Source: Dipteris shenzhenensis (Eukaryota). From it: a stretch of 64,000 nucleotides of DNA. Positions within the stretch are counted from its first letter, which is position 1. Each line of letters begins with the position of its first letter. Made by a program: the position numbers and the translations under genes. The notes below the pieces were generated by a model that saw only the letters and a program-made list of their open reading frames with translations, was not told the origin of the DNA and searched no databases. Of the stretch, positions 13,720-63,624 are shown piece after piece. The stretch lies in the NCBI GenBank assembly GCA_047967505.1, contig CM106538.1; one strand, 5' to 3'.

Positions 13720-15847
13720 CAAGGACTGCTTTCCTTTTAGGGGGTTGGTTTTTACATTGCCTTGAGTAGGTTGCCTTTTTGAGCTCCCTGATTGCAAGCT
13801 CAACCCTCCTTGCTCCTTTCTAGAAGGGGGCTTGTTCCTTCCTTCAGGGGCCTGGCCCCTTCCTTCATGTCGCTTTCTCTTTCCTTGATTTGAGCTTCTT
13901 GGTTGTAGGCCTGGCCTTCTTGCTCCTTTCCTAAAGGGGGCTAGTTCCTCCCTTCAAGCTCCTTTTCCTCAAAGTCAGCAGGCTCGGTCTTGGAATTCTT
14001 CAATTTGAGCTCCTTGTCTTTTTCATTTTTTCCCAAATGGAAAATTGAGCTGTAGCATGTACTTTCTCATCATAGATAGCTATAGTAGGCAACCACATTT
14101 GATATGTTCATGGCCTGGGAAATGGCAAATGACATTCTCTACATAGCGATCTTGCATGCATAAACACCCCAAAGCAAAAAACATGCACAAGATGGTAGCA
14201 TGCAAGCCATCGGATCATGCAGTCATCTATGATGGGGGTATGGCAGACCATGCATTTCGCATTTCGGACCGTACTACATAGTAGGATAGGCATCTGATTT
14301 AACTATTGTGACTGTCAATACCACAGTCTTGCTCTATACATGACAAAGTTGCTTCTTGATTCCTTCCTTCCTCATCCTAAGGCTGTGGATGTTCTCCTTC
14401 ATTTCCTCTACTCTTTGCTCACTATGTGCAATAGCTTCATGTGAATCCCTCAGTATCTTTTGAAGCTACTCAATTGCTCAAAAACATATACATGGGCCAT
14501 TTCTAAGGCTTCCACTCTAGTTTAAAAATCTCTCAAGATGATGGACTACTTTTCAAAACTATCGAAAGCCATAGAAAGCTCGTGCACAACCCTATCATAA
14601 TCTTTGTGCAAGGTCTTCTAGCTTACTCTTTGAACTTCCCAAATTGTTTCAAATTAAAAGCAACCCTCATCATTGGCTACTCTAACTTTCTCCACTGTGG
14701 CCGCTCTCTGTATACTTTCTGGCCTGGAGAGCTCCCTCATTGTCTTCTCCACCCTAGCTACTCTCTGCCCCATCCTTCCTGGCCTTGAAGCTCTCTCATT
14801 GTTCCTGAATCACCTTTCTGGTTTCTGCATTCTCCCTTTTCAACTCCTCCATAAACTGGTCTTTTTCAATGTTTAATGCGTTTTGATGTTGAAGAGCCAT
14901 TTGTAAAGACCCTTCTTTTCGGCTCTCTAATCTTCAAGCTCCTTTTGCATCATTTCTAGCTCCTTGTCTATGATGTCCCCATCACTTCTCACTTCTTCAA
15001 GCCTATCTCAGAGCTCCTTGATGTGCTTTTTTGCTTCTTCTCTTCCATGCCTTTCCATGTCGACCATTTTTATAGCGGCCTCAGCTTGCTCTTGTGCCTC
15101 CAAGGCCCTTGCTTATGTCTCCTCTACCTTGACTTCTGCACCTTCCCTAAGAATTTTCTCAAGTTGCGCTGCCTTTGCTGCATTGGTGGCTTTCTCTTGT
15201 AGAAAAGTCACCTTCTGAGACATTTTCTTATCATATTGCTCAAAAATCCCTTTGATGGTCGATGCCATCACGTGCATTGCAACTCCAGTAGACTGAGATG
15301 ACAATTGGGATTTGCCATCCATGCAATTCTTTAGGTTGGTTATCACGCTCTTGGATATCACCCTTGAGAAAGACACATCACATCTTTTCAATTGCTCTAC
15401 TACTGCTTGAACCTGACACAACTTTACGATTCCTCTCGTATTAGGAAAGAAGTGAATAGTCTTCTTCATCAGCACATCTTGGAGGTCTGTTGGCAAGCCA
15501 AAAAGCTTGACTCCACCATCTATACTAATCTGAGTGTTGGGGTATACATCTAGAATATCATGTCTCTTCCACTGCTTCGTGAAGAAGTGTGCTTGCATAT
15601 TGCCTCCAGGAATGCCTAGTGCATTTTCAATCATGCTTTTAGTGATGGTAATCTTCTGACCTTGACACACTAGTTGCCCCTCCACGTTCACCTCCTGTAC
15701 CAACCTAGTGAAGTTTTTGAGAGCAATCAAATTGGGCTTTTGAAGAGAGACATAAGATGAAACAGTAAATGGAAACGGAATAGTGGAGGCTTGAGTTTGT
15801 AGTTCAAGTGCAAGGAAAAAGAAACGGTTGAGAGAGATAGAAGACAA
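13720..15847 (-). pseudogene. Decayed ORF: N-terminal transposon-type domain, long coiled coil, RING finger, K/E-rich tail
   Basis: The 244-aa ORF 15113-15847 continues past the stop as an E/K/Q-rich heptad region. 14108-14293 encodes CMVC...ACYHLVHVFC...CREC (RING-H2-like spacing). LVCQGQKITITKSMIENALGIPG recalls accessory ORFs of plant transposons. Confidence 0.65.
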
Positions 15848-30500: not shown

Positions 30501-30783
30501 TCAACTATACGTGAGTGTGAGATAAGGGCTGCAGGGAAGGCTGTGACAGTTGATCATAAAGCCTAGATATAACCAGAGATGAGAGCTGCATAGGCCAGTT
30601 GAAAGCTTCATCGGATAAAACTTTCCTTTGTCCTTGAAGACAGAATCCTCCAACACGTGATTGTCTCTCTCCTCCTCATTTCGCCTGCAGCCCTTTTCAT
30701 GTATCAAAACCTCCAACATCTGTAACTTTCGTCTTCTGCACCAAGCTCCCAAACTTGTTTCTCGATCGTTTGCTTCATTGAAA

Positions 30784-33700
30784 ATGGAAGGTGATTGTTC
30801 CGCCGAAAGAACTGCCCATACCAACCCGGCCAGTACCGGCCCTCATGGTGCGCCTGCAGTTCAATCCTCAGTGGAAGAAGTTGCTCTTATTGTCCCAGTC
30901 ACAGATGATTCCTCTTTGCCTGTCATGACTTTCAGGATGTGGGTTCTTGGCGTCCTATCCTGCATTCTTTTGATGTTTTTTAACACGTTCTTCGCCTACC
31001 GCACTCAGCCTCTCACAGTGTCGGCTACATTTGCTCAAATAGCTGTCCTTCCAATCGGTCGATTTATGGCAGCTGTCCTTCCCAGAACCCAATTTAGAGT
31101 GCCCTTGCTTGATTCAAGCTTTTCTCTTAATCCAGGACCATTCAACATAAAGGAGCACGTCCTCATTAGCATTTTTGCAAACGCTGGCGTGTCGTTTGGC
31201 GGTGGAGATGCATACTCCGTCGGGGCAATCAATATAATGAAAGCGTTCTACAAAAAGAATATTCACTTCATTATGGGCCTGCTGATTGTGCTGACAACGC
31301 AAGTAAAGTTTTTCTTTTTTTCTTCTTTCTTTTATTATTTTGGGGTCCTTGCCCTTGACTTAATTAGGAGTATCAAGCCAGTACGTCAGGCCCTACAATC
31401 TCATCTCGTCAGATAGTTTTATTTAAGGATTGTGTTTGTTTGTGCCTGAAAAGGTGCTTGGGTACGGATGGGCTGGCATGTTTCGAAGATACCTAGTTCA
31501 ACCAGCACATATGTGGTGGCCCTCGAACTTACTTCAAGTCTCCCTCTTCAGGTGTGGGCTTATTATCGTCTTATACCTTATGCAGTGCATGGATATTCAT
31601 TCGTAATCAGCAAAATCGGGAATTCACTTTGGCTTTGCGAATAAATCTGTTAATTCCAACGGTCGAGCCTTGAGGATGCAGTGGATAATTATTAATGAGA
31701 TGTTTTCAATTGCATGCATTTCAGGACCCTACATGAGAATGACGTCCGTACAAGAAAGGGATTGACTAGAATGCAGTTCTTTTTTATTGCCACAATGGTT
31801 AGCTTCACCTATTATACATTACCAGGCTACTTATTCAGTGTCCTTACATTTCTATCCTGGATATGCTGGATTTCGCCTCGCAATGTTAAGGCAAATCAAA
31901 TTGGTTCTGGTTTTCATGGTTTGGGTATGGGAGCAATCTCACTAGACTGGGCTGGAGTATCATCCTATCTTGGGAGCCCACTTGTTACACCATGGTGTTC
32001 GATTGCCAACATTGGCATTGGCTTTATGCTCTTCATCTACCTTGTTGTGCCGGCTGCATATTGGGGGAACTTGTATGAAGCAAAGACGTTTGCACTATAT
32101 TCAAGTCAGCTTTACACAGACCGAGGAAGCAATTACAACATCTCTCACGTGTTGACCCCGGATTTTACTTTTGATATCCAGGCCTACAAGAACTATAGCA
32201 ACGTATACTTGAGCACCCTTTTTGCCCTTTCCATAGGGTTTGGATTTGCAAGGATTGCTGCTACTCTTACTCATGTGGCTTTGTTCCATGGAAAGTACGT
32301 AATCTGACACAGATCTTCCAATCAAATATGGGAAAGTCTGCTTCTTGTTATTACCTATTGCTTGCATGCGGTTTGACATTTTATTTTGGCAGGGAAATCC
32401 TTGAGCGTAGTCGATTTGCCATGAAGGACGAGAACTCAGATGTACACTCACAACTAATGGGACAATACATGGAAGTTCCTCAGAGCTGGTTTATAATCCT
32501 TCTATTGGTCAGTCTTGCAATTTCCCTTATGGTCTCCATTGTTTGGGAGGAGGATGTTCAGCTTCCATGGTGGGGTGTGCTTTTGGCTTGTGGCATTGCA
32601 TCACTTTTCACTCTTCCCATTGGGGTAATCACAGCAACAACCAACCAGGTTTCTTTCCTCTCAAACTTTGCAGTTCTCTTTTATTCTTCATTGAAAGGCA
32701 TGAGTGATCCGGATTCTCTTCAAGTCGAAACTTTTGTCCAGTTCCATAAGTGTGATGTTTTGGACTCTCTCACTAGACAATAATTTGATGAGCTGTGGGA
32801 TCTAATTGAAACAGCACCCTGGATTCAATGTTTTGGCCGAGTTTTTGATTGGCTATCTACTTCCAGGGAGGCCCATAGCAAACACCATATTCAAGACATA
32901 TGGCAGAATAAGTATGACTCATGCTGTATCATTCCTAGCCGACCTAAAGCTTGGTCACTACATGAAGATTCCACCAAGATGCATGTATACAGCACAGGTG
33001 ATCTTCATTGTGATTGCAATTAGCATTATCTTTGCATTATAACTTTTTGTGTGGCCTCATCTCTTTCACTAATTGCACCTGCCAGTAACCTGGGCCTGCT
33101 TATACACACACATTCATGCACAAACAGGTCACAAAAGCAGGTTCACATAAGTATTCACAAAATTAATACTAGAACATAGTTCAAAAATCTTGCCGGAAAA
33201 ACATTGTTCTCCTCTATTGGAAGCTCACGTACGTGTAATCTGTCTACAGCTTGTGGGCACATTGATTGCCGGTACAGTCAACATGTGTGTTGCATGGTGG
33301 ATGCTTACTTCGATTCAATCCATTTGCGATCTGAATAAACTTCCTCCTGGGAGCCCTTGGACATGCCCCAAAGACCATGTTGCATTTGATTCCTCTGTCC
33401 TGTGGGGCCTCATAGGGCCAAGACATCTCTTTGGATCACTTGGCATTTACAAGAACCTCACCTGGTTTTTTCTGTTTGGGGCTTTCCTACCTGTTATAAT
33501 TTGGATTCTTAGCAAAGTCTTTCCAAGATCAGGTTGGATAGCTCTAATCAATATTCCAGTGCTGCTTGGAGGATTTTCAAGCACGCCTCCAGCCAGGCCT
33601 GTAAACATTGCAACATGGTTACTAGTAGGCACGTTTTTCAACTGCTACATTTTTCATTTCAGGAAAAGATGGTGGCAACGGTACAATTATGTACTTTCTG

Positions 33701-33864
33701 CAGCTCTTGATGCTGGTACCGCATTTATGGGAGTACTACTTTATTTCACACTTGGGTTGACAGAGAAAAAACTTCATTGGTGGGGCACAGAGATTGATCA
33801 TTGCCCGCTTGCTACATGCCCCACTGCCTCAGGTATTGTGGTTAAAGGATGCCCAGTGTTCTGA
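30784..33864 (+). CDS. OPT3: Oligopeptide transporter, OPT3-like (iron/metal homeostasis). Exons 30784-31302, 31454-31551, 31725-32294, 32393-32648, 32815-32997, 33250-33864
   Basis: All five introns are GT-AG. Exons sum to 2241 nt (746 aa plus stop) without internal stops. OPT motifs [10 protein letters not shown] and [13 protein letters not shown] are present, with OPT3-like [16 protein letters not shown] and C-terminal [22 protein letters not shown]. Confidence 0.93.
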
Positions 33865-37550: not shown

Positions 37551-39770
37551 TTTTTTGCTTGAGTGCTTTACATGTGTTTTTTAGTGCTATGACAAGGCTT
37601 TAGTGCTGCTTTGTCACTACTTGCTTTTGTGATTGGTTTGGTAGTATTTTAGCAAAGCTCTGTATGTGGTTTGGATGTTATTTGCATGTGCTTTTGACTT
37701 GTTAGATTCTGCTAAGAATTGCTTAGTGAGACTGCTTTACCACTGCTTTCCTTTTAAATTTTGCTTTTTGACAACTTGATTTTTTTATTGTTTGTCAATG
37801 CTTTGGCACTGCTTTTGCAGAGCTTTGCATGTGCTTAGTACTGCTTTGGCAGTGCTTTATGACTGCTTGTCCTTTTCTTGACTGCTTTATGAGTGCTTTT
37901 CCACTGCTTTCCACTTGTAATGTGCTTTGCATGAAATTTACAAGTTCTATGTAACTGCTTTGAAAGTGCCTTAACATTGATTTGTGGCTGCTTGCCCAAT
38001 TGCTTTCTATTTGAAGAGTGATTTACATATGCTTTGCATCTGCTTTGGCAGAGATTTACATGTGCTTTGGTAGTGCTTTGCATGTTCTTGTTACTTCTTT
38101 GGCAGTGCTTTATGACTGCTTGTCCTTTTCTTGATTGCTTTATGAGTGCTTTTCCACTGCTTTCTACTGGTAATGTTCTTTACATGAAATTTACAAGTTC
38201 TTTGTAAGTGCTTTGTGTGACTACTTTGAAAGTGCCTTAACATTGATTTATGGTTGCTTGTCCACTGCTTTCTATTTGAAGAGTTCTTTACATGTGCTTT
38301 GGCAGAGCTTTACATGTGCTTTGCATGTGCTTGTTACTGCTTTGGCAGTGCTTTATGACTACTTGCCCTTTTCTTGACTGCTTTATGAGTGCTTTTTCAC
38401 TGCTTTCTATTGGTAATGTGCTTTGCATGAAATTTACAAGTTCTCTATAAATAACTGCTTTGAAAGTGCCTTAACATTGATTTGTGGATGCTTGTCTATT
38501 GCTTTCTATTTGAAGAGTGCTTTACATGTCCTTTGCATGTGCTTTGGTAGAGCTTTATATGTGCTTTGACAATGCTTTTCATGTGCTTTACATGTGCTTT
38601 GCATGTGCTTGTTACAGCTTTGGCAGTGCTTTATGACTGCTTGTCCTTTTTTTGACTGCTTTATGAGTGATTTTCCACTGCTTTCCACTTGTAATGTACA
38701 TTACATAATTTGTGACAACTTGTCCACTGCTTTCTATTTTTGGTAGCTTGTCCACTTCTTTCTATTTGAAGAGTGCTTTACATGTGCTTTGGCAGAGCTT
38801 TACATGTGCAAGTTGGCAGTGCTTTTTGCATGTGCTTGTTACTGCTTTGGCAGAGCTTTATGACTGCTTGTCCTTTTCTTGACTGCTTTATGAGTGCTTT
38901 AACATTGATTTGTGGCTACTTGCTCACTGCTTTCTATTCAGGGAGTGTTTTACATGTGCTTTTCAGTGCTATGACAATGCTTTAGTATTGCTTTGTCATT
39001 GCTTGCTTTTGTGATTGGTTTGGTAGTGTTTTAGCAAAGCTCTGTATGTGTTTTGGCATATTATTTGCATGTGCTTTTGACTTCTTATATTCTTAGCTTT
39101 TAAGCACAAAAAGCATACCGACCAAACGTGCTACCACCCACATAGAATATTCCATTACTCACAGTCCTGAAGTCTTTGTCTCCTTTTCACTATGTTGGTG
39201 GGTTGTTGGGCATCTTCATCTTTGTCTCCTCACTTGCCCAGTTGCCTAGAGTCCCAATCCTCATGGCACATGAAAAGAAACCCCAATCTAGCCACCACAA
39301 TGGCAAATTGCTTGTGTTGTGTGCTAGCCTTTGATGAAATTATAGATCTTTCCAAGTATAGTTCAACAGCCAAGGGAACATGATGAAGTGGAAGAGAGGA
39401 TAACAAAGAAGTGAAATGCTATATAGTGGGTTTATTTTCATGTGTTGAAGATGTGGACTGTCATATGCTAGTTAATGCTACTTAGGACCTAAATTATGAT
39501 GCTAGGGACTTGCTTTTGAAGTCCTTGAAAACAATCGTCATATCAAAAGCTTTTTGCCCAAGTCATTTACATGTGCTTTGGCAGTGCTTTGCATGTGCTT
39601 GTTACTGTTTTGACATTGCTTTATGACTGCTTTTTCTTGACTGCTTTATGAGGGCTTTTCCAATGCTTTCTACTTGTAATGTGCTTTGCATGAAATGTAC
39701 AAGTTCTCTATATGTTCTTTGTGAGATTGCTTTACAAGTTCTCTGTATGTCCATGGAGTGTTTTACATAT
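37551..39770 (+). repeat. Degenerate TGCTTT-rich satellite array
   Basis: Recurrent gtgctttgcatgtgctt and ggcagtgctttatgactgcttgtccttttcttgactgc in ~240-bp higher-order units. Interrupted at ~39100-39560. Confidence 0.85.
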
Positions 39771-45899: not shown

Positions 45900-48800
45900 A
45901 AGCAATCAGCCCCACAATTGGGACTGTCACCCATTCAGGCTACACAACATACTTTTCTGCAAACTAGTAGGCTATCTGTATCTTCCCAAGCACCAAAGTA
46001 GTCTTTAGATGTAAATTGTTGGCGATCCCATGAGTTCAACCATTGCAATAACTAGGGTCCTACATGCTTAACCAGAAAATTATGCTGCCAATGCACATGC
46101 ACGTAGTCTACAAAATGTCCCTTCTGGTTTAAGGCTAACCCTAAACTCTTTGACCTTAAAAGTGTCCAAGAAGGTATAAAAGCAATCTGGCTGATGGTCT
46201 TACCTCACCCAATGAGTCCTGGTGTACAGCTGTTGAACAAACCCAAAGGTTACTCAGAAAAGCAAGAAAAGACAGAGCAAAAATAAGGGCCAAGAGAATG
46301 GACATTATTCAAGACAAGATAGTCTCTTTGGAAAGCTAAGCCAAATAGGGGGACTTACATGCCCAGGATGATTTGGTTGGGAAAAGGAATGAACTCAGGA
46401 TACAAGAACAGATTCTACTTAATGATATTAAAATATACTTCAGAGATTGGTGGGCTGGCAAAGCTGAGAGTCCTACCAAGGAGTACTTCAAGCTTATTAG
46501 AAGAAAAAGATCTAATGAAGAGACTCCCCTCCTTAGAAAAGCTGACAACTCTCTTGCCTCCTCTCTTGAGGAGAATATTGATCTCATTCATCTCCACTTT
46601 TAGAACTTGTTATCCTCCACTATACAAGTTGATGCTGATGTGTGTAATGCTAGGGAACTCTGTAAGCTTGTTAGAAAGAACATTGTACTCAGCTTTGATA
46701 ACAAATTCCTTGGAAAACCTCTTTCTGTTGATGAACTTTATGAGCCTTTAGTTAATGACAGATGGTAAAACACTAGGACAAGATAGGCTACCTATTGAAT
46801 TCTACAAAATATGTTGGTCCACTATTGGCCCTATATGGCAAGAGAGTGTTAGCTGTGGGAATCTGCCTACTCATATTAATGGGGGAGTTATCAAACTAAT
46901 TCCTAAGGAGAGGGATAAGGAGGAGATAAGAAATTGGAGGCCACTCACCATGCTTAATTGCAATTACAAATTTTTTGCCAAAACCCTTGCTTTGAGAGTT
47001 AAAAATAGAATGGCTAAGTGGATACTACTAGAACAGAAGGGATTCATAAAGGGCAAACTTTTATTGGAAGCCATCATTAATATTTGGGAGGGCTGTGGTG
47101 AATACGCTAGGGAATCAAATCAGGATATCTACATTCTGAAGGTTGATTTTGATAAAACATATGATAGATTGGAGTGGGACTTCATCATTCAGATGCTTTC
47201 TAATATGGTTCTTGGCCCTTACTCATCTCCTATATCAAACTTCTTCTCACCAATGCCTCAGCTAAGGTCTGTGTCAATGGTATCATGAGTCAACCCTTTT
47301 TTCTTTAAAGATCTATAAGATAGGGTTGTCCTATTGCTCCCTTACTCTTTGCAATTGCTGCAGACTCTCTAGGTTGTCTTCTTCATTGTCAAAGCCAAGA
47401 TAGAAATGTAAAAGGAATTGAGTTACCTTCTAGCAAACACCTTATATGCCAATAGTTTGCTGATGACACATATTTAACCCCCCTCAGGAATAAGGCACAG
47501 AATATAAAAAAAGCTATGGAGTACTTAGATATTTTTTGTAAAGCTTCTGGATCTAGAATCAATCATTCCAAAACTAGGTATGCAACTCTCAAAGGTGATG
47601 AGCAGGTTGTATTGGAGGAAATGGGTTGCCAGAGAATCAAACATGGTACTGTGTTCAAATTATTGGGTATCCCTATGGGCTTTGACATCTCCCTCAAGAA
47701 GAGATGGGACTGGTTTTTGATCAAGTTTCAAAACAAGATTGAGAAATGGAGAGGTTTCCAAGCCAGTCTAGCTGGGAGTACAATGGTTCTCAACCATTGC
47801 ATCTACCCAATTGTGATTTTCTACCTCACCTCTTGGTACCCTTCTAGAACAACACTTGACAGGTTCATCAGATTTTGCAGGTCCTTCCTTTGGGGGGGCA
47901 AGATAGCCAAGGTCAGATGGGATTTTTGTATCAAACCCAAGTAGGAAGGAGGCCTAGGGGTGGTTGATATAGAACAGGCTTCTTTTAAGTTATCCTCAAC
48001 TTGGATAATTAAAGTAATTTTCCATCCTCAAAAGGATTGGGCTCAACTCCTACTTAGGAATGTAAGCTCTTTAAGACCTCTGAGAGCTCCCAAGTGGAAA
48101 AACTATCCCATGTTTTCAGCCATTTGTAATCTTGAACCTTGCAAAGCTAAAGGCAATCAGTTTTGGCAATCTCTATGGACAACCTTTGAAGGAAATAAAA
48201 GCCAAATTGTCTTCTCTGGCAAAGGGGCATTTATGTCATTAGATTCAATCTAGGTCTTTGTTATATTTAAGGAGGCTTTTCTCTCTGATGAAGAGTTTTA
48301 TATGGCTTCTAAGCTCTTCAAGAAAGGATTGTAGTGTTGGGGTCAGCTATGGAGCAGAGTTGAGTTCATATGGAAAACTTGGATTGAGATTAGGAGGGAG
48401 TTTAGATTAAATAATCAGAACCAGATTTTGATCATGAACAGAATTCACCTTTGGGAGAGTAGTCAGAAATGGAAAGGTGGAACTTTTTTGGTCTATAGTA
48501 GAGAGTTCAGTTGGGTTGAGAGTACTTCCTTCTTCCCTATTCCTACCCCAGCTAGGGATATAGAGGATCTTTTCATTGTCTTTAATACTAGATGGAAATT
48601 GTAGGATTGTAGGGGCAAATGGAAATTCAGATTCTGTTGCATTTGGTCAAGCTCAATCCTTGATAAAATGTCTGCCCTACTTTGTTTGATAATGCACAAA
48701 GCTATTTGGACCAACAGCAGAGGACTGAGAATTGGAAAGGGAAATGGCAAGTGCATGAGATGTCCTCTTTAGAGGAAGATGTCTTTCACCTCTTTGTTGC

Positions 48801-51299: not shown

Positions 51300-52220
51300 T
51301 GCACAGACAATGCAAAAACAAATCACTACCAATAAATATACAAAGCGCTCCCTAAAAACCATCACAAAGCATATGATGCACTTTCATAGCGCATGCAAAG
51401 CATATTCAAAGAAGTCCAAAAGTAGAAGGAAAGCAAACGAAAATCTAAACCCAGTGCTTAAGCATTGCCAAACTAGTCACAAAAGCACTGAACAAAATCA
51501 AGCACTCAGAAAGCACTGCCAAAGCACTACCAAACCACGCACAAGTGGTGCAAAAGCACTCACAAAAGCAAGCAGTGCCAAAGCATATTGAAAGCAATAA
51601 CTATTTACACGAAAAGCAGTTTTCAAAGAGAAAGTAGTGGTAAAGCAATCATCACTGCTAAGCATTGACAAGCACACATGTGTGCTTTTCAATGCTTAGC
51701 AGTGACCAAAGACTTAAAAATCAGTGCCAAAGCACTACCAAACCACTCACAAGCAGTGCTAAAGCACTGCAAAAGCACTCACAAAAGCAAGCAGTGCCAA
51801 AGCAATCTAAAAGTGATGACTGTTTATAGGAAAGTAATTTTAAAAGAGAAAGCAGTGGTAAAGCAGTCACAAAGCACTACTAAGCCATTGACATGCACAC
51901 ATACAAAGCAGTGCTAATGCAGTGAGACCCACAAATCATATAGACTACTTTGCATATTCCATGTAAAGAAATCTAAAAATGCAAAGCAGTGACCAAGCAG
52001 TTAGAAAGTAGTGCCAAAGCATTACCAAACCACTCACAAGTAGTGCAAAAGCACTCACAAAATCAAGTAGTCACAAAGTAGTGCCCAAGCATACTAAAAG
52101 CAATGACTGTTTACATGGAAAGAAGTTTTAAAAGAGAAAGTAGTGTTAAAGCAGTCACAAAGCACTACTAAGCATTAACAAGCACACGTACAAAGCAGTG
52201 CTAAAGCAATGAGACCCACA
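51300..52220 (-). repeat. AAAGCA-rich array related to the 37551-39770 array, in opposite orientation
   Basis: ttttaaaagagaaagcagtggtaaagcagtc (~51840) is approximately the reverse complement of gactgctttaccactgctttccttttaaa (~37731). Confidence 0.75.
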
Positions 52221-52234
52221 ATGCACATGTAGAG

Positions 52235-52901: not shown

Positions 52902-53914
52902 AGTAGAGTAAGCTGGTTCCTGCATAGTTACATAAGAATGGAGCATTGATATCTAACACCCCCCCTCAATGTCCACCCGCAAGTGAACTTACTTTTTCGG
53001 TCCAATGCCAAGTCGATAAAGATGCCTCTCCAGCAAGTCTCTTCTAGCAGCCTTTGTGAAGATGTCCACAACATTCTCTGTAGTCGGACAGTATACCAAG
53101 TCGACCTCTCCATCCATGATGAGCTCGTGTACAAAGTGATATTGAATCTCAATGTGTTTTGTGCAAGCGTGGAACACAGGGTTCTTTGCAATCGCCATGC
53201 AACTTTGATTGTCACATGATAACTACGTAAGGCTTGTTCTACACTGCATCCATGTCCCCCAGAATCCTCCTCAACCACACTACCTCGCAAGAAGCAAAGC
53301 ATGCTGATTTGTACTCAGTCTCGGTAGAAGAAAGAGCAACTGTGGGTTGCTTCTTGCTGACCCATGACACAGCTCCAGATCTAAGTGAGAAATAGTAACC
53401 TGTCACTGATCTCCTGCTGTCCATGTCTCTTGACCAATCCGAGTCACAAAATCAGGTCAAGATGTTGCCCTTGGTATAGGTGATGCCATAATCAAGTGTG
53501 CCTTTGATGTATTTCAGCACCCGCATCCCTGCCCTCCAATGGTTCTCCCGGGGCTTATTGGAAAACCTGCTTAGTCTACCAGTCGCAAAGCTGATGTCCG
53601 ACTGTGTGTTGCACAAGTAAATCAAACTGTCCACAAGCCTTCTGTACTTCGCTTCATCCACCAGTGGTGATGAATCCTCATTTGAGAGCTTCACGTCAAC
53701 CTCCATAGGGTACCAACTGTCTTGCACTTAGCCAAATGCCTTCAGTATCTCTCCAGCATACTTCAGTTGTGAAATGATGATCTATTTCCGCTCTTGCCAA
53801 ACGTCAATCCCCAAATAGAAATGCGTCAGTCCGAGATCTATCATTTTAAACTCTCTTCCTAGCATATGCTTTGTCTGTGAGATCTTCTCTTCATGGTTCC
53901 CTGTTAGATGGTCG
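52902..53914 (-). mobile_element. Ty1/Copia fragment D (RT end, RNaseH, PPT, start of LTR), different family
   Basis: FKMIDLG, YRRLVDSLIYL, SKKQPTVALSSTETEY, FHACTKHIEIQYHF. PPT gaggggggg then TGTTAG at 52958. Truncated at ~53914. Confidence 0.9.
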
Positions 53915-54008
53915 CAGTGCTCCCGCTGCGCCTGTAGAGAAGGCAACAACACCCCCGCCACCTCCACCGAAGCGAATCCTTCCTCTCCCCTTTCATTCCC
54001 ACAATCCA

Positions 54009-54030
54009 TGTGTGTGTGTGTGTGTGTGTG
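54009..54030. repeat. (TG)11 microsatellite
   Basis: Read directly from the sequence. Confidence 0.95.
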
Positions 54031-55109
54031 AGTGTGTTCTGTTCGACCATCCGTGCATAGAGCTAAATCTGGCAGCACATAGCTAAATCTGGCAGTGCCA
54101 TTTGTCCGTGCATAGAAAGCTTGACTGATACAAAGCTGAGCATATTAAGGTGGTGGCTGTCGTTATTGATCAAGTCAATACCTTTAGAATCTCGCTAAAC
54201 ATGGGTCCTCGATGAGCTGGCCCTTTTGGCCACATGGGCGGCAAACCACTGATTTGACCGAGTCTTTTTGCCCGCCAACTCCCGTTTTCAATTATTATCT
54301 AGCGTAACACCCTAATCTTTGGGAGTCTCTGATCATCGAATCCTGCCATTGATTGTTGCCCATGAGTCTGATAGAGTAGGGGACTTGCCAGAGAGCCGGA
54401 AAATCCTTTCAAAAGCATGTTAGAAGACCTTCAAATGGCCACAGCTAGTTGTATATACCACCTTGGGCATTCCCATTCTCTACACAATTAACTGGCAATG
54501 ACTCCATACTCTTTTGCAATCTTTTTAGTTCAAACCAGCCAGCTTTCAGCTAGGACTTGGTGCTATTAGTGTGCTCTCAGCCTACTTGGCCTTATGTGTG
54601 GTTGACAAGGTGGGCTTGAGAATCGTACTCCTTGTCTGCACGCTTCCATAATCACATTTGTAGCTGTATATCACCATACATGTCAACAGTTTTATGTCCA
54701 TTTCATGCTTCATTTTGAACATGTTAATGATGATTTTGCTGTAATTTGTTCCTCATTTCCTTTACTTTACAATAGGTTTTGCTGCTACTGCAAATAATGC
54801 ATTGAGAAGGCCTATGTTTCTACTTCAACTCACATGTTTTTGGTTGGAATTTGTTTATAGGTGCTGTAATTTGTTACTAGTTGCTAGAGTAGCTGTAAGC
54901 TTCAAAAGGAGATTGTTGGCTTGAAGCAACTCTGATTCTTCCATACTTTGCTCCAGGTTTTATGTCCATTTCATCCTTCATTTGAACATGTTAATGATGG
55001 TTTTGCTGTAATTTTCTCCTCATTTTCTTTACTTTACAAAAGGTTTTTCTGTCCATTTGAGATTATCTTGTTGGGCACCTTTTTTGTTATCTAGCCCTTT
55101 TATAGGAGC

Positions 55110-58100
55110 ATGGAGAGGCATGATATTGTGATTGTGTTAGATGAGGGTGTGGCTGAAAATCATGTGTTGGGATATGTTCATCTTAAAACCGGTGGTACCT
55201 ACAAGGACTTGAGAGAAGAGATCATCCTTGATAATCTCATCATAGATGAGTTTATATTTTTGGGAGGATCTAGGAAAATTCTAATAGGGGCCAAGCAAGA
55301 GGAGAGATGGATAGTTGATGTTGCAGAAGTAACCATCCAATTGAAAATGGAATATGATACACAAGGCAAACGCCAAAAAGTGGACTCAGTTGGAGATAGC
55401 AATAAAATGCAGCCAAAGTGTACAGTGTCTCCAGATTTATGTATGCATGATCTTGCTCAAGGGTGTGAGAGGTACAATATGGTGGATGATTTGACTACGT
55501 GTGGTAGTGTTTTTAAGAATTGATTGAAGAATCACCTTGCAACACCATCTGAGGTCAAAAAATGGCAGAGGGAGATTAAGATAGCCAAAGAAAAGTTAAG
55601 AGCAAAAGGCCGACATGATAGATTTGAGCTCATGTCAAAGGACAAGGATGGTAAAGCATTGTTTCAGATTTGGTGTGAGGAGTGTGATTGCTCTTATGGT
55701 CAAGGGGGTCCTAACACTTTGTATAATTACACACACTCACACATCAACTCAGCATCCCATATGAGGATTATTGGGTTATGTGAGCAAGAGAGCCATAGAA
55801 AAGATAGCCTTGGTTCATTGGATGACATTATGGAATTAGGAAAAGAAAAAGTAAATGAAGCAATGTTGGAGGTTTCAACCTTTGCAAGTGAGAGTAATGT
55901 GGTGTTTCAACTAGTAACAGAGACTATTGGAGATTATAGCACTCTATCAAAAGTCTATATAAGTTGCATGCTAGATAACAAGTGGATACCACTATTTCCA
56001 AAGACATGATCTCTACGACAATGCATGATTGAGCATATGAAATCCAAGCTACATATCACAAAGGCTAGTGGCATTGATTCTAGTAATCAAGTGAAGAGGG
56101 CTGGTGGTCGCCCATCCAAGGTGACAATTATAGATAAGAAGCAAAGAGATCTAAGTGGTTTTTTCAAGAAATGTTCTGCTAAAGGTAAAACTCACATGTT
56201 CTAGCTGTGTTTTCCATCAGCTTTGTATTTTCCAAGTGAACATTTTTTCTTATGCTCTATTGTTATGTTTTCTTATAGATAATGACACCTTGCAAACTGC
56301 CAATGCATCACGAAAGTCATCAGGTATTTCTCATATGCTTCTATTTTCAATCATTATTTCTGATTTTTTATAGAGATGTTAGGTGTAGCTAGTCATATGG
56401 CTTTTGGCTCTCTCTCCATTAGGCAAATTTTCAAGCTTCTATTTTCAATCACTATTTCTGTTTTTTTATAGAGATGTTAGGTGTAGCTAGTCATATGGCT
56501 TTTGGCTCTCTCTCCATCAAGTCTATTGGGAACTTAACAGATTCCTCCTTTGCTCACAGAGAGTAGCTTGCTTGCAACCTTGTGTTGGGGTTTTTGGCAA
56601 GGGTCATATAACTATGATGGGAATGTGGTTGACTTGAAGCCCTTTTTGGTTGATAGTAAGGGAGGTGGCAAATGGCACAATGAGCCAGCAACTAAGGCAA
56701 CAATTATGATGGGGCAACAGAGTTCATTGAAATTAATGGCAAATTCCGTCATAAGGATTGCAAGCGGATATGTTTGGAGGGAACATACTTTGATAATTTG
56801 CAGTGTGGTGCATGTGCTACTATTCCTAAAGAACGAGACTTTCGCATGCGAGTGTATTGACAAATTCGATCTTCAGACACTCATGGATCAAGAGACACAG
56901 GAGGTGGTAGACGGTTAGATTATTTGACTCATTTAGAGTTATTGAGAGTAGCAAAAACAAAGTCCACAATGGTTCGGGTATTGAAGAAGGAGATAGCATT
57001 CACAAGAACTGAAGTTGTTGCATTGAGCGTGAAGGTTAGAAGTCTTCGGGAGAGCACTATGGAAGCCATGGTGAGGAAAGATGTTAGAAAATTTTGTCAA
57101 GATATAATCAATGCTCATGAGCTAGGTCTGTTTGAGGGAAAGAAGGCATTGTGGAACTTTTTTGTTGACATTTCACAAAACATTTCAAGAGTAGGTCAAG
57201 GGAAGAGATATTCCAATACAACAAAGGAATTATTTGAGACTGTCAACATATGGGGAGGGACAAGGTTGCATAATTTCTTATCACTTAACCTTGGAGGTCC
57301 ACACATGTCCACCACAATTAGGTCCACAAGAAAAGCACTTTTATTTCGAACTGGTTTACAAGAGGATATATTTCAACATGCAAGAGAAGTTTACACTTAT
57401 CACATGATGAAGAAAGGTATACCCTTGGGTAGTGTGCCAGTTCTTCTAGCTGAGGATGAAACAGTTGTGAAAAGAATGGTGAGATGGGTGGCACGTGATG
57501 ATAATTTGGTTGGCTTTTGTGGTAAAAAGCTAGAACACACTTGCATTCCAGACTTTGTCGTGCAAGTTGGTGATGGTCAAGATGGATATCTTAGAGTTGT
57601 GGATGCTTTTCAACATAATGTGATTGCTCATTATGCAAGGGTATTGATAGTGAATCCTCTTCTTGAATGCTTGCCAAAGCTAGTTCTATTGGTGCAATTG
57701 ACATGTAATAGGTTTGATTCCATGTTTGTCAGAGAAGAGTGGGAGAGCATTCAGCTTTCTTGGAACATTTTTCTAAGGGACGTGGTAGGTCCATTGATAG
57801 GACATGCTTCAGATGGGGATAGTAGGTGCAGAAAGTTGATGTTGCAAGATTACTCTTCTTGTCAAGGTCCCAGGTTGTGCATTCCTTGGAAGGGTTGGCC
57901 CTTTACAGCACACATCACATTTGATGGGAGTATCAGTGGTTTGCATGATCAAGACTATATCCATAATGGAAAGAAACTTATCAATCCTTTGGATAGTGCA
58001 TCTAGGAGCTTGGTACTTAGTAGAGAGCTTGTGACTTTGAATCATGTAGCAATTGTATATCAATTATTCAAGGTTGATGAACATGGCTTGCAAGAAGGGG

Positions 58101-59747
58101 ATATTGAGAGGAAGGATAGACAAAATTGGAGAGCTGCACAAAGGATTGCTGCAAAGAAAGTACAAAAGTGTTTGAAGTTATTACAAGAAGGCTATGGTGC
58201 TCACCAAGAGCGGACATTGGGCACACGTATGTACTTATCAATAGTAGCATCTTACATTGATATTTTCTTATCACCTACCTTAGACTTGTATGGTCGTGTG
58301 AAAGCTGTAGGAAAGGTGTCTTTCTTTTTCAGGTATGTAGAAGTTGCTACCATTGCTATTAGTGATATATGAATAAAGGATTTTGAACATATTTCCAAGG
58401 TTTATGTGGCTAATACTCATGGTTCTTTCTATATGTAGGATTTGGCGCATGTGGATCACTAAACATGATGCATACTCCCTAAAGCAAAACTTTATCAGTA
58501 GAGAAACATTCATTGACATTCAATTGTCATGTCACTTTATGGTTCTCTTGATAAAGACCTTTAGGGAAAAGCATCCTCACTTGCACATACCCCTTTCTTG
58601 CACGGGATCGGATGCATGTGAGAATTTTTTCAGCAAGGTGGGTGGAATGGTTCGGAATGAAAGATGCTATGATGGCTTTGATTTGCTGAGTAGTACAGGA
58701 GCACTTAATAGAATAGCAGAGTTTCAAGCAGGTTCAATTCTTAAATTTCTAGCAGCTCATTCTAAACAAGAAAATATATGGGCTACTTTGGAAAAGGAGA
58801 ATGACACTCCTTTGGCCAACCTGGGAGACTATGCTTGTGTGACTAGTGACAACCATATGGTATCTGCATTGAAAGAGGGATTATTAGAAGCAAAGGCCAT
58901 AAGTGAGACACTTGGTATGCGTGATGAAACTTTTTGGAATGACTCATGGGAGGAGGGAGATCTCTTAGAACTCTTCAACCCTAATCTTGAATATGTGGAT
59001 GAAGATGAATCATTGGATGATGTTCTACTTATAGATGAAGATAATCACTTTGATAGTGGTGTTTGAGGTGATCTGGATGAGGAAATTACTAGTGAAAGTG
59101 AGCTTCATCATGTGATTGATTGTCTAATTGATGAGGAGGAGAAGGTGGCTAGTGAAATATCGCCATTTGTTGAAGTGGATGGGAAAGCCATTTCTAAAAG
59201 CACACTTGTCAGCCAATTGAATGGAAATCCCACACTATCTAAAGATAGATTAACAAGGGTGAAAAGTGGAGTGTATTTTTCTTTGGAGAAGAAGGCAATG
59301 ATTCATACAGGAACATGTCTTGGTATAGGATCTGATTGTGCAGTATTGTTTGAAAGCACATCAATAAGTGCAAACAAAAAGACAAGAGGAAAAGGAAAAG
59401 CTGGGAATACTAGTAAGGGTGATGTAAACGGCATGTGGTACCTTGGAAGGGTGGTAAGCATGAGGAGAAAGGTTGGAAATTGTCTAAAAGAGACAAGAGG
59501 CCCCTTTGATCTATTGGATAGGCCTTTGAATGTTCAAATTCATTTGTCATGGTATCAACAAGCAAAGGGAACTAGGACCTACACATATGACCTTGTTGAC
59601 AACCAATGTGTGGATTTGGAATCTATAATAGCCTTGGCCAATCTCAACTATGATCGACAAACAAAGAAATACCATCTTGATGAGAATGACTACAAACTTT
59701 TCAATGAATATGTTCAGGGCAGAAAAGGTACATTTTCTATTTTTTAA
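55110..59747 (+). mobile_element. P-element-superfamily-like DDE transposase gene with introns and a few disabling stops
   Basis: Motif order LAEDET, ASDGDS, DQDYIHNGKKLINPL (DxxH), DRQNW.AAQ, GSDACENFFSKV, then an acidic tract and SKDRLTRV. GT-AG intron 58333-58438 joins FFFR-IWRMW. Two further probable introns at ~56185-56560. N-terminal CEEC...HINSASH. In-frame TGA at 55521, 56007 and 59064. Confidence 0.7.
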
Positions 59748-60196
59748 ATTTTTGTAAAGTTTATCCATTTTGAAGTCGTCCCTTCCCTTCCCTCCTTCCT
59801 AGTCCATTTGCAGCCCTACTGCTCCAATCTCTAATGTAGATGAAGGTAACATATGTTTTTGTTAATGTGCTTTCAATCCTTCTTATCACATAGGGATCCT
59901 AGGTTTGCAGCATGTAACTTGACAGGAAGCTTATGTTTGTTTTGTAGGATAAATTTGTTGGCAAGCTATGTGGCATGATGCAGCATTTATGAGAAGATGC
60001 CCATAGATGGTCAATGCTAAACTTATGGATTATAGACATGGATTGTAGACATGGATTTTTCGGGTGTTACTCTTGTTTAATTTTTAGTTTTTCTAGTAAA
60101 CATTCAAGATGCATTTTATGTTTTCTACTCTATCAAATTTTGGTTTAGATTCATGGATTGTTCAGGTGTTACTCTTGTGTAACTTCATATTTGCTG

Positions 60197-61131
60197 CTAT
60201 TAAACATCCAAGATGCTTTTCAGCTTTCTCATTCTAGTGTTTGTTTTTTAAGGGAGAAGAAACTTGTTTATGTTAGTGTGTAATCATTCTTATATTGTAT
60301 ATATTGGGTCTACTACAGCTTTCTAGCTTGTCCGCCCCAATAACAGTGAATGTAGTTACTATCTACACTATTCTGAGCAGGTTTTGAGACTGTTGCCAAT
60401 TATGGGAAAGGATTTGGAGCTGTTTACCTCTGTATTTGGCAATACAACATTCAAATTAGTTCATGTTTTGCAAGTACAGGTCTGCATTGGAAGTTCAGTG
60501 AGGTTTGTGCATTGTTTAGCCAAGCATTGGCTAGTGGGTTAATGTGATTTTGTTGGTGCAATACCATTCACAGCATGTGAATCAGTGGGCAGTTTATGCA
60601 TACATCTAAGATGGTTCAGAATCAAAATCTGAATCTAAATTTGGGAGACGTGTTTGAAGTTTTGGCCTATTAAACATCTAAGATGCTTTTCTCATTCTAG
60701 TGTTTGTTTTTTAAGGGAGAAGAAACTTGTTTATGTTAGTGTGTAATCATTCTTATATGCTATATATTGGGTCTACTACAGCTTTCTAGCTTGTCCGCCC
60801 CAATAACAGTGAATGTAGTTGCTGTCTACACTATTCTGAGCAGGTTTTGAGACTGTTGCCAAGTATGGGAAAGGATTTGGAGCTATTTACCTCTGTATTT
60901 GTTGGCAATACAACATTCAAATTAGTTCATGTTTTGCAAGTACAGGTCTGCATTGGAAGTTCAGTGAGGTTTGTGCATTGTTTAGCCAAGCATTGGCTAG
61001 TGGGTTAATGTGATTTTGTTGGTGCAATACCATTCACAACATGTGAATCAGTGGGCAGTTTATGCATACATCTAAGATGGTTCAGAATCAAAATCTGAAT
61101 CTAAATTCGGGAGACGTTTGAAGTTTTGGCC
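60197..61131. repeat. Near-identical tandem duplication of ~465-470 bp
   Basis: 60197-60666 and 60667-61131 align almost base for base. Confidence 0.92.
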
Positions 61132-61132
61132 T

Positions 61133-61440
61133 GGGAGGATAAATTGGATGGAACCAAGTATTCCATGTGGAGTTTTATGGTGAATAATGTGTTAGTTGGT
61201 AAGAGTATATGGGGCTATGTTAGAGGTGATGAGGCTTGTCTTGTAGATCTAGTTATTGCTTCTGCTACACCTTTGTAAGGAGGTAATGCATATGATATGC
61301 AGCTAGCTTCGATAAGGCCAGCTACACCTGTTGCTCCCATTGAGGATTAAAGGAGATGGGATTAAGGGATGCCCAGGCTATGCCACTTATAGCCTTGTCC
61401 ATTAAAAGGATCATCATACCTCGTATCTGTTCCTCCAACA
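61133..61440 (+). mobile_element. Copia gag N-terminal fragment
   Basis: EDKLDGTKYSMWSFMVNNVLVGKSIWGYVRG matches the Copia gag start motif. Stops follow. Confidence 0.7.
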
Positions 61441-62655
61441 TACTTGGAGAATATGTATTGGGCAAGGAAGGAGGATAGGCTTACTTGAAAAGACATCTTG
61501 ATAGTATTTCAAGAGCTTTACTTATGGAAATACATTGGTGGATATGTATACTCTTTGTAGATGTACAGTCAATACGTATGCAAAATGGTATAATGTTGCC
61601 TTGGTTAGCATGTCGATGTAGGTGATTAGCATGTAATGGATGTAATGCCAACAAATGAGTGCTCTTATCATCACTATTAGGCATGAATCAAGAACATCTA
61701 TTTTGATAGATGTAACTTTAACAAATGCTGTTATCATCATTATTAGGCTTGAATCAAGAATTACCATGCTAACCATGTATGGTAACAAGTGTGCGGAGGG
61801 TGTGCGGATGACAGATGGATGTTTGACAAAATATGATAGCCGTCTTATAGTCTTGTTGTTTGACAAAATAGGATAGCTGTCTTGACGTAGGTTTAAGGAA
61901 AGGGGGGGAGCACACTAGACTTTTTCTTGTACCTTATAAGCTTAAATAGGGGTGTTTTATAATCCTACATGGATCTTAAATAGGGGGTTTTCTTGAAGTT
62001 CATGCATGCAGGTGACGTCCCCCTTTAATGAAGAGTGAATCCCTCGGGGCTCTGATTCACAATAAAGAAGGACAACACAATTTACGCCACACGTCTAGAA
62101 TTGGCAATAGATAATTTGTTCTTTCCAAGAAATATGCAATGCACTTTGTGATGCCGCCTCCAAAAACAAACCAATTTCTTGAATTGATACTTGCATTGGA
62201 GATCCTCAAACTTGTGTAGGAGCAATTTCCCATTGTCGAAGCAAAGAGAATGCAGTCAAAGATAATGCTTGAATACTTTCAAGGTGCCATCATACAGGGA
62301 CCTAAGGTAAAAGGATCTACACATGAGGCAGAAACTACATGAGGCGAGGCACAACATACAACCTTGGTTCAGGGTCATACAGATAAGAGAGGAAGTGGAA
62401 TGGCTGAGACACATGAGGTAGAAACTACAAGGGAAAAGACACAACATGAAACCTCAGTTTAAGGTCATATAGATGAGAGAGGAAATGGAGTGGGTGAGAC
62501 ACATGCGGTAGCCTTAGATGAGGGTGTCACACACATGGATGCTCACTTGGATGATGTGACTCAATCAAGACTTTGGCCTAGAGAGTATCTCAGTTGTTGA
62601 TGGCACTAGAAAAAGTGTTGCTCCATCTTCCAAGAGATCTGGGACCTGCAAGGAG

Positions 62656-63624
62656 TTGGAAGATGCAGAATGCTTGGTTGTAGCACAGACTTCTGACGAA
62701 GTAGACTTAAATATAGAGGTCTCAGGTAACGAATTACTTACTGGGCAACCTGAATTGGTGTCAGAGTGCATCTCGGAATTTACCACTGAAAAGGCTGATA
62801 CTTTGTTTGCTTTGCAAAGTAATGCAGTGCCATCCTTTACTGCATCAAAGGCTACAACTGGTCTAGCAACTGAGATTGAGTTTCTAGCCCATACGTATGT
62901 TAGAAGACGTAAGAATCTAAAGCATCGATCTTCAGATAGTGCGGAGGGTATCACAAACCTGAAAGCACCTGCTTTGCCAAAGCATGCACAAAACAAAGAG
63001 CATTCATTGCCTGAAATTAAAGTAGATGTGTTTGGACCCTATGTGGGCAAAAATGAGGACAGGCCTATTGTCAAAAGAGCTGGGCAGGTGGAGAGATTCC
63101 TTTCAGTCAGAAATAGAAACAGTGACACAACTGTATATTGCATGAAGCTAAGTGGAAAAAGCTACAAGAATGCAGTGTATGTATCTGAAAGCTTTGTTTT
63201 GAAAAATTATCCTCAACTACTAAGGAATTTCTTGAGGCGGATGGATGATCTACATAGAGTGGATGGGAATTCAGGAGAGAAAGTGGACAGTCCTACCTTT
63301 GACCCCTTGTACCTTCAAGTTGACAGGATTGTTGCAGCTGAATAAAGAGGTCGCAAGAAATGCTATTTGGTAAAGTGGCATGGACTGCCTTATTCTGAAT
63401 CAACTTGGGAGTCTGAAGACACGATGCTCGGTGAGAAGGAGGCAATGAAACAATTTTTGCGGATAAATACAAAAGGTGCACCTCCAAGTAGCACAACTAC
63501 TTTCAAAGATGGCCGTGTGCTTCGGGACTATCAGAAAAAGGGGTTGGCGTGGATGGACCATAATTTTAAAAAACGCATCAATTGTATCCTTGCAGATGAG
63601 ATGGGTCTGGGAAAGACTATGCAG
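62656..63624 (+). pseudogene. CHD-type chromatin remodeller fragment (tandem chromodomains and start of SNF2 ATPase) with an in-frame stop
   Basis: FDPLYLQVDRIVAAE*RGRKKCYLVKWHGLPYSESTWE then LRDYQKKGLAWM...CILADEMGLGKTMQ, followed by a GT donor at 63625. TAA at 63343-63345 is in frame. 90-bp repeats lie upstream at 62319-62510. Confidence 0.8.

Follow-up and report, generated by a model that had tools for sequence, protein, structure and literature searches.

Does the genome of Dipteris shenzhenensis hold the remains of a P-type DNA transposon? The question is raised by positions 55110-59747 of a 64,000-nt stretch of contig CM106538.1 (assembly GCA_047967505.1; hereafter the window), where an initial annotation had proposed a spliced gene for a P-element-like transposase lacking an obvious THAP domain. 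In insects and vertebrates, P-type transposons, represented by the P element and THAP9, belong to the textbook repertoire; to our knowledge they are absent from the standard picture of land-plant mobile DNA. Our results suggest that an autonomous cut-and-paste DNA transposon left this locus behind as a defunct copy of its only gene, and that the element belongs to a divergent and unnamed lineage of the P (TNP-like) superfamily. We attribute to this reading a probability of about 80%.

The central part of the encoded protein, a 503-aa open reading frame (ORF), matches 1,318 representative proteins with E<=1e-3, of which 591 remain at E<=1e-10 and 154 at E<=1e-30, and the features of the gene are therefore far beyond chance. 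Word-indexed searches listed 33 longer relatives and 98 of similar length. The closest relative, P0180, is 71% identical across 98% of the query, and P0151, the best full-length one, shares 50% identity with the core. The structure of P0151 was modelled with AlphaFold on the basis of an alignment of 78 sequences (A1), and the mean pLDDT was 85.8. With this model Foldseek returned the Drosophila P element transposase as top matches (6pe2_A, E 7.9e-10; 6p5a_A, 1.3e-9; TM 0.69 on the target), followed by RAG1 (E 6.6e-4) and Hermes (1.3e-2). With VIA-align, the model superimposes on 6p5a_A with a Z of 17.5 and a root-mean-square deviation (rmsd) of 3.3 A, 405 of 442 residues being aligned (model residues 168-656), while Transib (Z 10.5), RAG1 (<=9.4) and Hermes (6.4) score lower. 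The match takes in the RNase H fold together with the large insertion domain, and also the helical region that precedes the core. The comparison of a predicted structure with Drosophila P transposase, which the initial annotation had suggested, thus gives this enzyme as the best match, with an RNase H-like fold.

The same model places the putative catalytic triad on elements of this fold: D269 lies on the strand 264-272, D388 just after the strand 382-387 and E621 on the helix 618-630. Among the 78 relatives of A1, both aspartates are conserved in 77 and the glutamate in 70 of the 72 ungapped sequences. Further conserved residues are D434 and H437 of the DxxH motif (76/78 each) and D390, close to the second aspartate (75/78). 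In the window protein, the motifs picked out from the sequence at the outset (DET, SDG, DxxH, DRQN, ENFFS and the C-terminal GSDCAVLF...WYLGRV...WY) are all in place (Table 1). Moreover, the protein-language-model neighbours of the window core are clusters carrying PF21787, PF21788 and PF12017, with scores of 0.91-0.94.

In a Pfam scan of 42 relatives, PF21787 (TNP-like RNase H N-terminal) is the sole recurrent transposase family. It remains below its cut-off of 24.6 in P0002 (18.7 bits), P0204 (21.7) and P0238 (15.0), in each case on the AEDET region, and passes the threshold in P0171 only, via three repeated copies of that region. P0171, from Nymphon striatum, is singular in several respects: its PVLLAEDE...GFCG region is repeated three times (residues ~19-72, 195-250 and 340-390) and its terminal part is YqaJ/alkaline-exonuclease-like. 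The gene model is probably chimeric or rearranged. Since no Pfam P family reaches the gathering score on a single copy, it is the fold and the transposon anatomy, and not the sequence profiles, that carry the membership of the family in the P superfamily. Consequently, the proposed placement by profile and structure stands for the structural part (a P fold) and fails for the Pfam profiles. The assignment as a P-element-like transposase is nevertheless upheld by the fold, the language-model neighbours, the sub-threshold PF21787 matches and 8-bp target duplications in relatives.

These duplications come from a scan of metagenome contigs with a second alignment (A2), which returned 76 loci. One of them, L001 (192-6287), is a complete element of 6,096 bp with perfect 26-bp terminal inverted repeats starting CTCGGGGGGGTCACTC, flanked by an identical 8-bp target duplication, GTTTTCAT. 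Its coding part is one uninterrupted intronless frame of 1,520 codons, with an intact reading frame of 1,494 codons, and judging from its sequence it is a candidate active element. The surmise that near-intact relatives may exist was therefore well founded. Two contigs from one sample, L020 and L021, hold both junctions of an element with the termini CTCGGGGAGTTCACTA, nested in the transposase gene of another copy; the insertion point lies between codons KGL and HDQD, and AAAGGCTT is present on both sides. A third locus, L002, has 15-bp inverted ends with the family motif, its termini being 8.7 kb apart. An 8-bp target duplication is thus found in two of the three end pairs bearing the family terminal motif, all of them in relatives. 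An informal summary of the ends, not a consensus obtained by computation, reads CnCGrGGrrTCACTC. In the accessible text of a published account, the target duplication is given as 8 bp for P and as 7 bp for 1360 and Galileo (PMC3698922).

Other pairs of inverted repeats turned up in the same set of loci. Those of L039 and L063 were rejected, as their termini are unrelated and without duplication. In L032, inverted repeats of ~720 bp (2890-3609 and 14821-15528; 84% identical) surround a family member and recall the long ends of Galileo; no exact target duplication was found within 30 nt of these arms.

How is the window gene itself built? It was expected to be a spliced gene of more than 1200 codons with GT-AG introns, and we find four exons, about 1,400 codons and three phase-consistent introns (Table 1). 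The introns are predicted by reading the DNA against same-strand ORF frames that continue across stop codons. Their phases match the flanking frames: exon 1 ends one nucleotide into a codon, exon 2 continues this phase and exon 3 ends two nucleotides into a codon. Intron 3 separates FFFR from IWRMW, which are contiguous in relatives, and intron 2 contains an 83-nt tandem duplication (56337-56419 and 56435-56517). In one sequencing run, X7, whose RNA nature is only guessed, contigs continue unspliced across introns 2 and 3. The predicted protein begins MERHDIV at the ATG (55110) and ends at a stop codon at 59745-59747. The part of the core that carries both catalytic aspartates, DxxH and DRQNW is encoded by exon 3. 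The window holds a single copy of the gene, and the full-length relatives P0153, P0163 and P0151 are collinear with it; in P0153 and P0163 this collinearity begins at the first zinc finger and extends to the final residue.

Table 1. Features of the transposase gene and its immediate flanks, in window coordinates
Feature	Position	Strand	Remarks
Two direct repeats of ~95 nt just upstream of the ATG	54689-54784, 54957-55051	+	families D9 and D16
Whole transposase gene model, pseudogene	55110-59747	+	4 exons, ~1,400 codons with the missing G counted
Exon 1: N-terminal domain, two zinc-finger motifs, basic linker	55110-56184	+	in-frame TGA at 55521-55523 and 56007-56009; donor AAAG/GTAAAA
Zinc finger 1, BED-like pattern W-CxxC-x18-H-x5-H	CEEC 55674-55685, HINSASH 55740-55760	+	kept in the A2 consensus
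Zinc finger 2, degenerate	CMLD 55965-55976, EHMKSKLH 56031-56054	+	PLFP replaces LLCP of relatives, leaving one Cys only; TGA inside
Intron 1 (predicted)	56185-56278	+	94 nt, GT-AG, phase fits
Exon 2, non-conserved linker	56279-56323	+	45 nt
Intron 2 (predicted)	56324-56559	+	236 nt, GT-AG
Exon 3	56560-58332	+	LCWGF box, zinc knuckle, long helix, predicted helical DNA-binding region, RNase H-like core; TGA at 56858-56860
1-nt frameshift site	56711-56714	+	G4 in the window; one extra G behind 56710 in contigs of 4/4 runs aligned
Zinc knuckle FRHKDC...CGAC	56744-56815	+	
LAEDET, putative first catalytic Asp	57446-57463	+	aligned to D269 of P0151
HASDGDSR, putative second catalytic Asp	57803-57826	+	aligned to D388 of P0151; neighbour D390
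DQDYIHNGKK, DxxH motif, start of helical insertion domain	57947-57976	+	D434 and H437 of P0151
DRQNW	58115-58129	+	
Intron 3 (predicted)	58333-58438	+	106 nt, CAG/GTATGT...TGTAG/G
Exon 4: end of insertion domain, catalytic Glu, acidic linker, C-terminal barrel	58439-59747	+	TGA at 59064-59066, in the acidic linker
SDACENFFS, putative catalytic Glu	58608-58634	+	aligned to E621 of P0151
C-terminal beta-barrel, BAH/Tudor-like	59313-59726	+	GSDCAVLF 59328-59351, WYLGRV 59436-59453, LSWY 59544-59555
Tandem duplication 3' of the gene	60225-61117	+	period 463-466 nt, 97-99% identical; families D2 and D3
Candidate right terminus, weak	62023-62048	-	best window match to the 26-bp end of L001, 19/26; 1/20 shuffles equal

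The gene had been described as carrying few lesions, and this is the case: the reading frame is interrupted by four TGA codons (starting at 55521, 56007, 56858 and 59064) and one frameshift. At 56858 relatives have an arginine, and so does a liverwort protein at 56007; these two stops would fit decay of CGA to TGA. At the frameshift site an additional G (G5 in place of G4) restores the reading frame, and since contigs of all four runs aligned carry it, the frameshift is either private to the assembly of the window or an assembly error. Carrying four stops and one frameshift, and lacking a zinc ligand as well as a recognisable left end, the window copy is unable to make the protein. It is an ordinary dead relic.

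Part of the gene is contained in 20 public sequencing runs, none of which is on record as RNA. The contigs of four of them were aligned to 53001-63000, and over the gene region they are about 98-99% identical to the window (13 differences over 1,547 nt, 25 over 2,058, 18 over 1,328 and 17 over 1,061). Run X3 has a further, diverged piece (record 23) with 47 differences and 4 gaps over 367 nt, and therefore more than one copy exists there. The contigs of runs X1-X3 give little or no cover at 54003-54313 and 62353-63000; those of X2 and X3 match solely from 54314 rightwards, and many X3 contigs have loose ends behind 62027. These limits near 54314 and 62027 are hints of a repeat boundary, no proof of it.

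Several results weigh against the P assignment or against a mobile origin of the window copy. Seven ORF pieces of the window gave chance-level Pfam matches only, none of them to a P family at gathering score, and P families at that score were likewise found in none of 41 relatives, the triplicated P0171 being left out. PF21788, PF21789, PF12017 and PF12596 are found in none of the 42 relatives scanned. The same is true of THAP (PF05485), which is common to P, THAP9 and Kolobok: in agreement with the initial annotation, none of the 42 relatives or of the seven window pieces has it, with E values up to 0.01-1 considered. Neither the core ORF nor the 78-sequence profile of A1 retrieved a transposase among the PDB sequences. 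As for the ends, comparison of 50-55 kb with 59.7-64 kb of the window by repeat search, blastn-short and Smith-Waterman revealed neither a left inverted repeat nor a target duplication. The candidate right end lies 2.3 kb downstream of the stop codon and its orientation is right, but it is not significant alone. Among the relatives, L002 shows no target duplication at its two ends. Finally, 8-bp duplications and BED-like fingers are compatible with hAT as well. Independently of this, a scan of the window for the terminal motif gave 4 matches against 4.56 expected by chance, and a left-type match at 36001 was rejected, having no matching target duplication.

Could the family then be hAT, Novosib or a superfamily of its own, its P likeness being due to the shared ancestry of DDE transposases with DxxH and a helical insertion? 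Target duplications of 8 bp are made by hAT elements and by Novosib as well and would suit both, the finger motifs are BED-like as in hAT, a weak point, and the lack of any Pfam P family at threshold would also be explained. As far as its published description is accessible, the RNase H domain of Novosib is without Pfam similarity and poorly defined (PMC5751038). Moreover, P-type and Novosib-type MITEs (miniature inverted-repeat transposable elements) are both reported in 'lower plants' in the accessible part of the P-MITE article (PMC3964958). hAT is disfavoured by the fold scores, the Z of 6.4 for Hermes standing against 17.5 for P transposase, and its dimerisation family PF05699 was found in none of the 42 relatives in the Pfam scan. 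Against a non-P assignment in general, PF21787 is the only transposase family that recurs, and the ten best matches with a family in the protein-language-model Atlas all belong to one P-type clan, as they do for one third of shuffled proteins. Altogether we regard such an assignment as unlikely. A Kolobok transposase is a different matter: Kolobok is usually placed nearest to P and is not known to have a solved structure, so that its enzyme might also match P transposase best. In the accessible text, Kolobok is defined by TTAA as its target and by the presence of THAP and of an H2CH finger (PMC6004289), which excludes it: the 8-bp duplications GTTTTCAT and AAAGGCTT of the relatives are not TTAA, THAP occurs in none of them, and we accord Kolobok next to no weight.

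Another doubt concerns not the superfamily but the status of the gene, which could be a domesticated host gene derived from a transposase, comparable to human THAP9 and now a pseudogene, instead of the relic of a mobile element. Its three canonical introns, as opposed to the intronless frame of L001, would suit such a history, as would the lack of inverted ends and target duplication in the window, the match of ~98-99% with contigs of four runs and the catalytic motifs, which are all intact. Yet the gene carries four in-frame stops and has lost a zinc ligand, the diverged piece in run X3 points to more than one copy, the relatives are clearly mobile, and named genomes hold many distinct copies (8 rows for Riccia and 6 for Adiantum). 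Domestication thus seems very unlikely to us, and a dead copy of a P-superfamily transposon remains the best explanation.

On this explanation, an intact element would be ~6 kb long with terminal inverted repeats of ~26 bp, as in L001, would generate an 8-bp target duplication on insertion and would encode one protein of 1,400-1,500 aa. A small N-terminal domain would be followed by two BED-like fingers and a zinc knuckle, a long helix, a helical DNA-binding region, the DDE core, an acidic linker and a barrel. The fingers and the knuckle would bind the element ends, a role taken by THAP in P and THAP9, and the long helix would serve oligomerisation. The RNase H-like DDE domain would be split by a large helical insertion, placed where P transposase has its GTP-binding domain, and it may likewise use GTP. 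The barrel would tether the enzyme to chromatin or bias the choice of target.

The two outer modules deserve closer attention. In the N-terminal region of the family, three Cys/His motifs are conserved in A2: W-CxxC-x18-H-x5-H, C...C...H-x5-H and the knuckle FRHxxC...CxxC. Two C2H2-like motifs had been proposed for the window protein; the first holds, whereas the second is broken in this copy, where only one Cys is left (PLFP for LLCP). The finger motifs of the family appear BED-like in pattern, for which Pfam and the Atlas give no confirmation: zf-BED has no Pfam match in the seven window pieces or the 42 relatives, and in the Atlas the zinc-finger region scores at most 0.85, the zf-BED clusters at 0.81-0.83 being a lead only.

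At the other end, a 226-aa ORF of the window itself served to model the C-terminal extension, with a mean pLDDT of 57 overall and of ~70-81 in the barrel. Of 48,161 chains compared with this barrel, 26 reach a Z of 5 and none a Z of 8. At the top stands the BAH1 domain of DNMT1 (Z 6.7, rmsd 2.6, 79 residues aligned), then come DIM2, EBS, ZMET2 and ORC1b; domains of the BAH, chromo-barrel, Tudor or PWWP kind make up the majority of the 26. With the full-length model of P0151 the same matches are obtained, and Pfam has no match to the barrel. We therefore describe the barrel, with moderate confidence and on the strength of these models, as BAH/Tudor-like. Other members carry different C-terminal modules, namely a PTM/DIR17 Tudor in P0022, a SAP in P0055 and a C1 in P0092, which suggests that a tethering module at this position may be exchangeable among members.

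How widespread is the family? The organisms named among the relatives are the liverworts Calypogeia fissa and Riccia sorocarpa (8 rows), the fern Adiantum nelumboides (6 rows), the brittle star Amphiura filiformis and the sea spider Nymphon striatum, together with one EukProt entry; no flowering plant is among those named in the word-indexed searches. A quick maximum-likelihood tree was computed from 51 core sequences, rows being hand-picked from the searches and the rooting being by midpoint only. It contains a plant-type clade of 30 rows (SH-aLRT support 100) with three subclades: Adiantum, the liverworts with many unnamed rows including L001, and a group with the window copy, which itself groups with P0180 (support 97). 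The clade containing Amphiura falls outside the plant-type clade.

A bolder scenario may be drawn from this tree. A P-superfamily lineage would have persisted through land-plant evolution, swapped THAP for BED-like fingers, acquired a BAH/Tudor-like histone reader by which integration is guided according to chromatin state, and would still be active in some hosts. The separate fern, liverwort-containing and window-host subclades, with the animal clade outside them, speak for persistence. L001, intact and with perfect ends, speaks for present activity, as do the runs of several organisms that hold 98-99% window-like sequence without the frameshift. Taken as a whole, this scenario is tentative and in our opinion rather doubtful.

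The surroundings of the gene within the window bear on its host. An OPT3-like oligopeptide transporter gene at 30661-33864 (+) consists of four ORF pieces covering Pfam OPT positions 2-622. Its protein is 64-65% identical to those of Ceratopteris, Diphasiastrum and Cryptomeria and at most 60% identical to angiosperm proteins, the best matches, unnamed, being at 72-73%. The initial annotation had set the transposase against a background of flowering-plant genomes, a premise that finds no support here: the OPT3-like gene is nearer to fern, lycophyte and conifer proteins, and the named transposase relatives come from liverworts, a fern and animals. On these results the host is a land plant and probably no flowering plant. 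Two tandem-repeat arrays (37627-39721, +, and 51396-52228; periods ~200-290 nt), ~12 kb apart, share the motif GTGCTTTGGCAGTGC in opposite orientation; they may be the subterminal arrays of a large inverted-repeat element enclosing retroelement ORFs (RVT_1 at 46752-47288). Upstream of the transposase region, the C-terminus of a Copia-type reverse transcriptase (...KMIDLGLTHFYLGIDV...) occupies 53782-54144 (-), where very many run contigs match, and a Copia-type gag-like N-terminus (...LDGTKYSMWSFMVNNVLVGKSIWGYV...) lies in the downstream flank at ~61131-61300 (+). The ~95-nt repeats in front of the ATG (Table 1) may be subterminal or promoter repeats. Rfam and tRNA scans of the window gave no matches.

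What do these results mean for the inventory of plant transposons? A survey published in 2025, as far as its text is accessible, screened 1,007 plant genomes via Pfam or custom profiles for 17 superfamilies, P, Kolobok and Novosib among them, and reported active clusters in only seven other superfamilies (PMC12973397). Surveys based on Pfam P models would miss the present family because it escapes every one of these models. It is a large family, present in liverworts, a fern, the window host and animals, at least one of its members being structurally complete. The data support the view that, within the P superfamily, it forms a divergent branch that is unannotated, whose domain architecture is new and which has intact members elsewhere. 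Our literature search found no paper joining P element, transposase and BAH domain, and no specific account of autonomous P-like elements in land plants; it did not extend to Repbase, where the family may have an entry. If the scenario of a persistent, active lineage were true, an eighth active superfamily of inverted-repeat transposons would have gone unrecognised in land plants, being missed by domain-based surveys. The combination of a P-like core with BED-like fingers and a possible chromatin-reading barrel would represent a natural experiment in which a transposase has exchanged its DNA-targeting modules, and the family offers candidates for chromatin-directed integration.

The family can finally be set beside known systems. 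With Novosib, compared by description only (Novosib-1_CR of Chlamydomonas, in the accessible text of PMC5751038), it shares an occurrence in the green lineage and a transposase without Pfam similarity. With Kolobok it shares a DDE transposase deemed kin of P and elements of several kb with a single transposase, while the TTAA target and THAP of Kolobok are not seen in the family and the H2CH finger was not specifically sought. The hAT elements Hermes and Ac resemble it by their 8-bp duplication, BED-type finger pattern, DDE core with a large helical insertion and C/DxxH motif; they differ by a much weaker fold match, that of Hermes extending over ~300 residues, and no C-terminal dimerisation family of hAT type is detected. 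The window barrel matches almost solely BAH, chromo-barrel and Tudor readers (DNMT1 BAH1, EBS, ZMET2, ORC1b, MRG15) with Z of 5-6.7, although no match reaches Z 8. The closest parallel is with P transposase and THAP9. Structurally, P transposase is the best match, from the helical DNA-binding region through the RNase H core and including the insertion domain, though with only 12-14% identity in the structural alignment, and the Pfam P models stay below threshold on the family. In P0151 the spacing is of 119 residues between the two aspartates and of 233 from aspartate to glutamate. In the family the place of THAP is taken by two BED-like fingers together with a zinc knuckle, and its protein is about twice as long, with an extra N-terminal domain, an acidic linker and the BAH/Tudor-like barrel. 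What both have in common is the DDE triad with DxxH, a glutamate helix in which ENFFS of the family resembles QDxxExxF, an 8-bp target duplication, inverted ends that are short and perfect, and a long helix lying upstream of the core.

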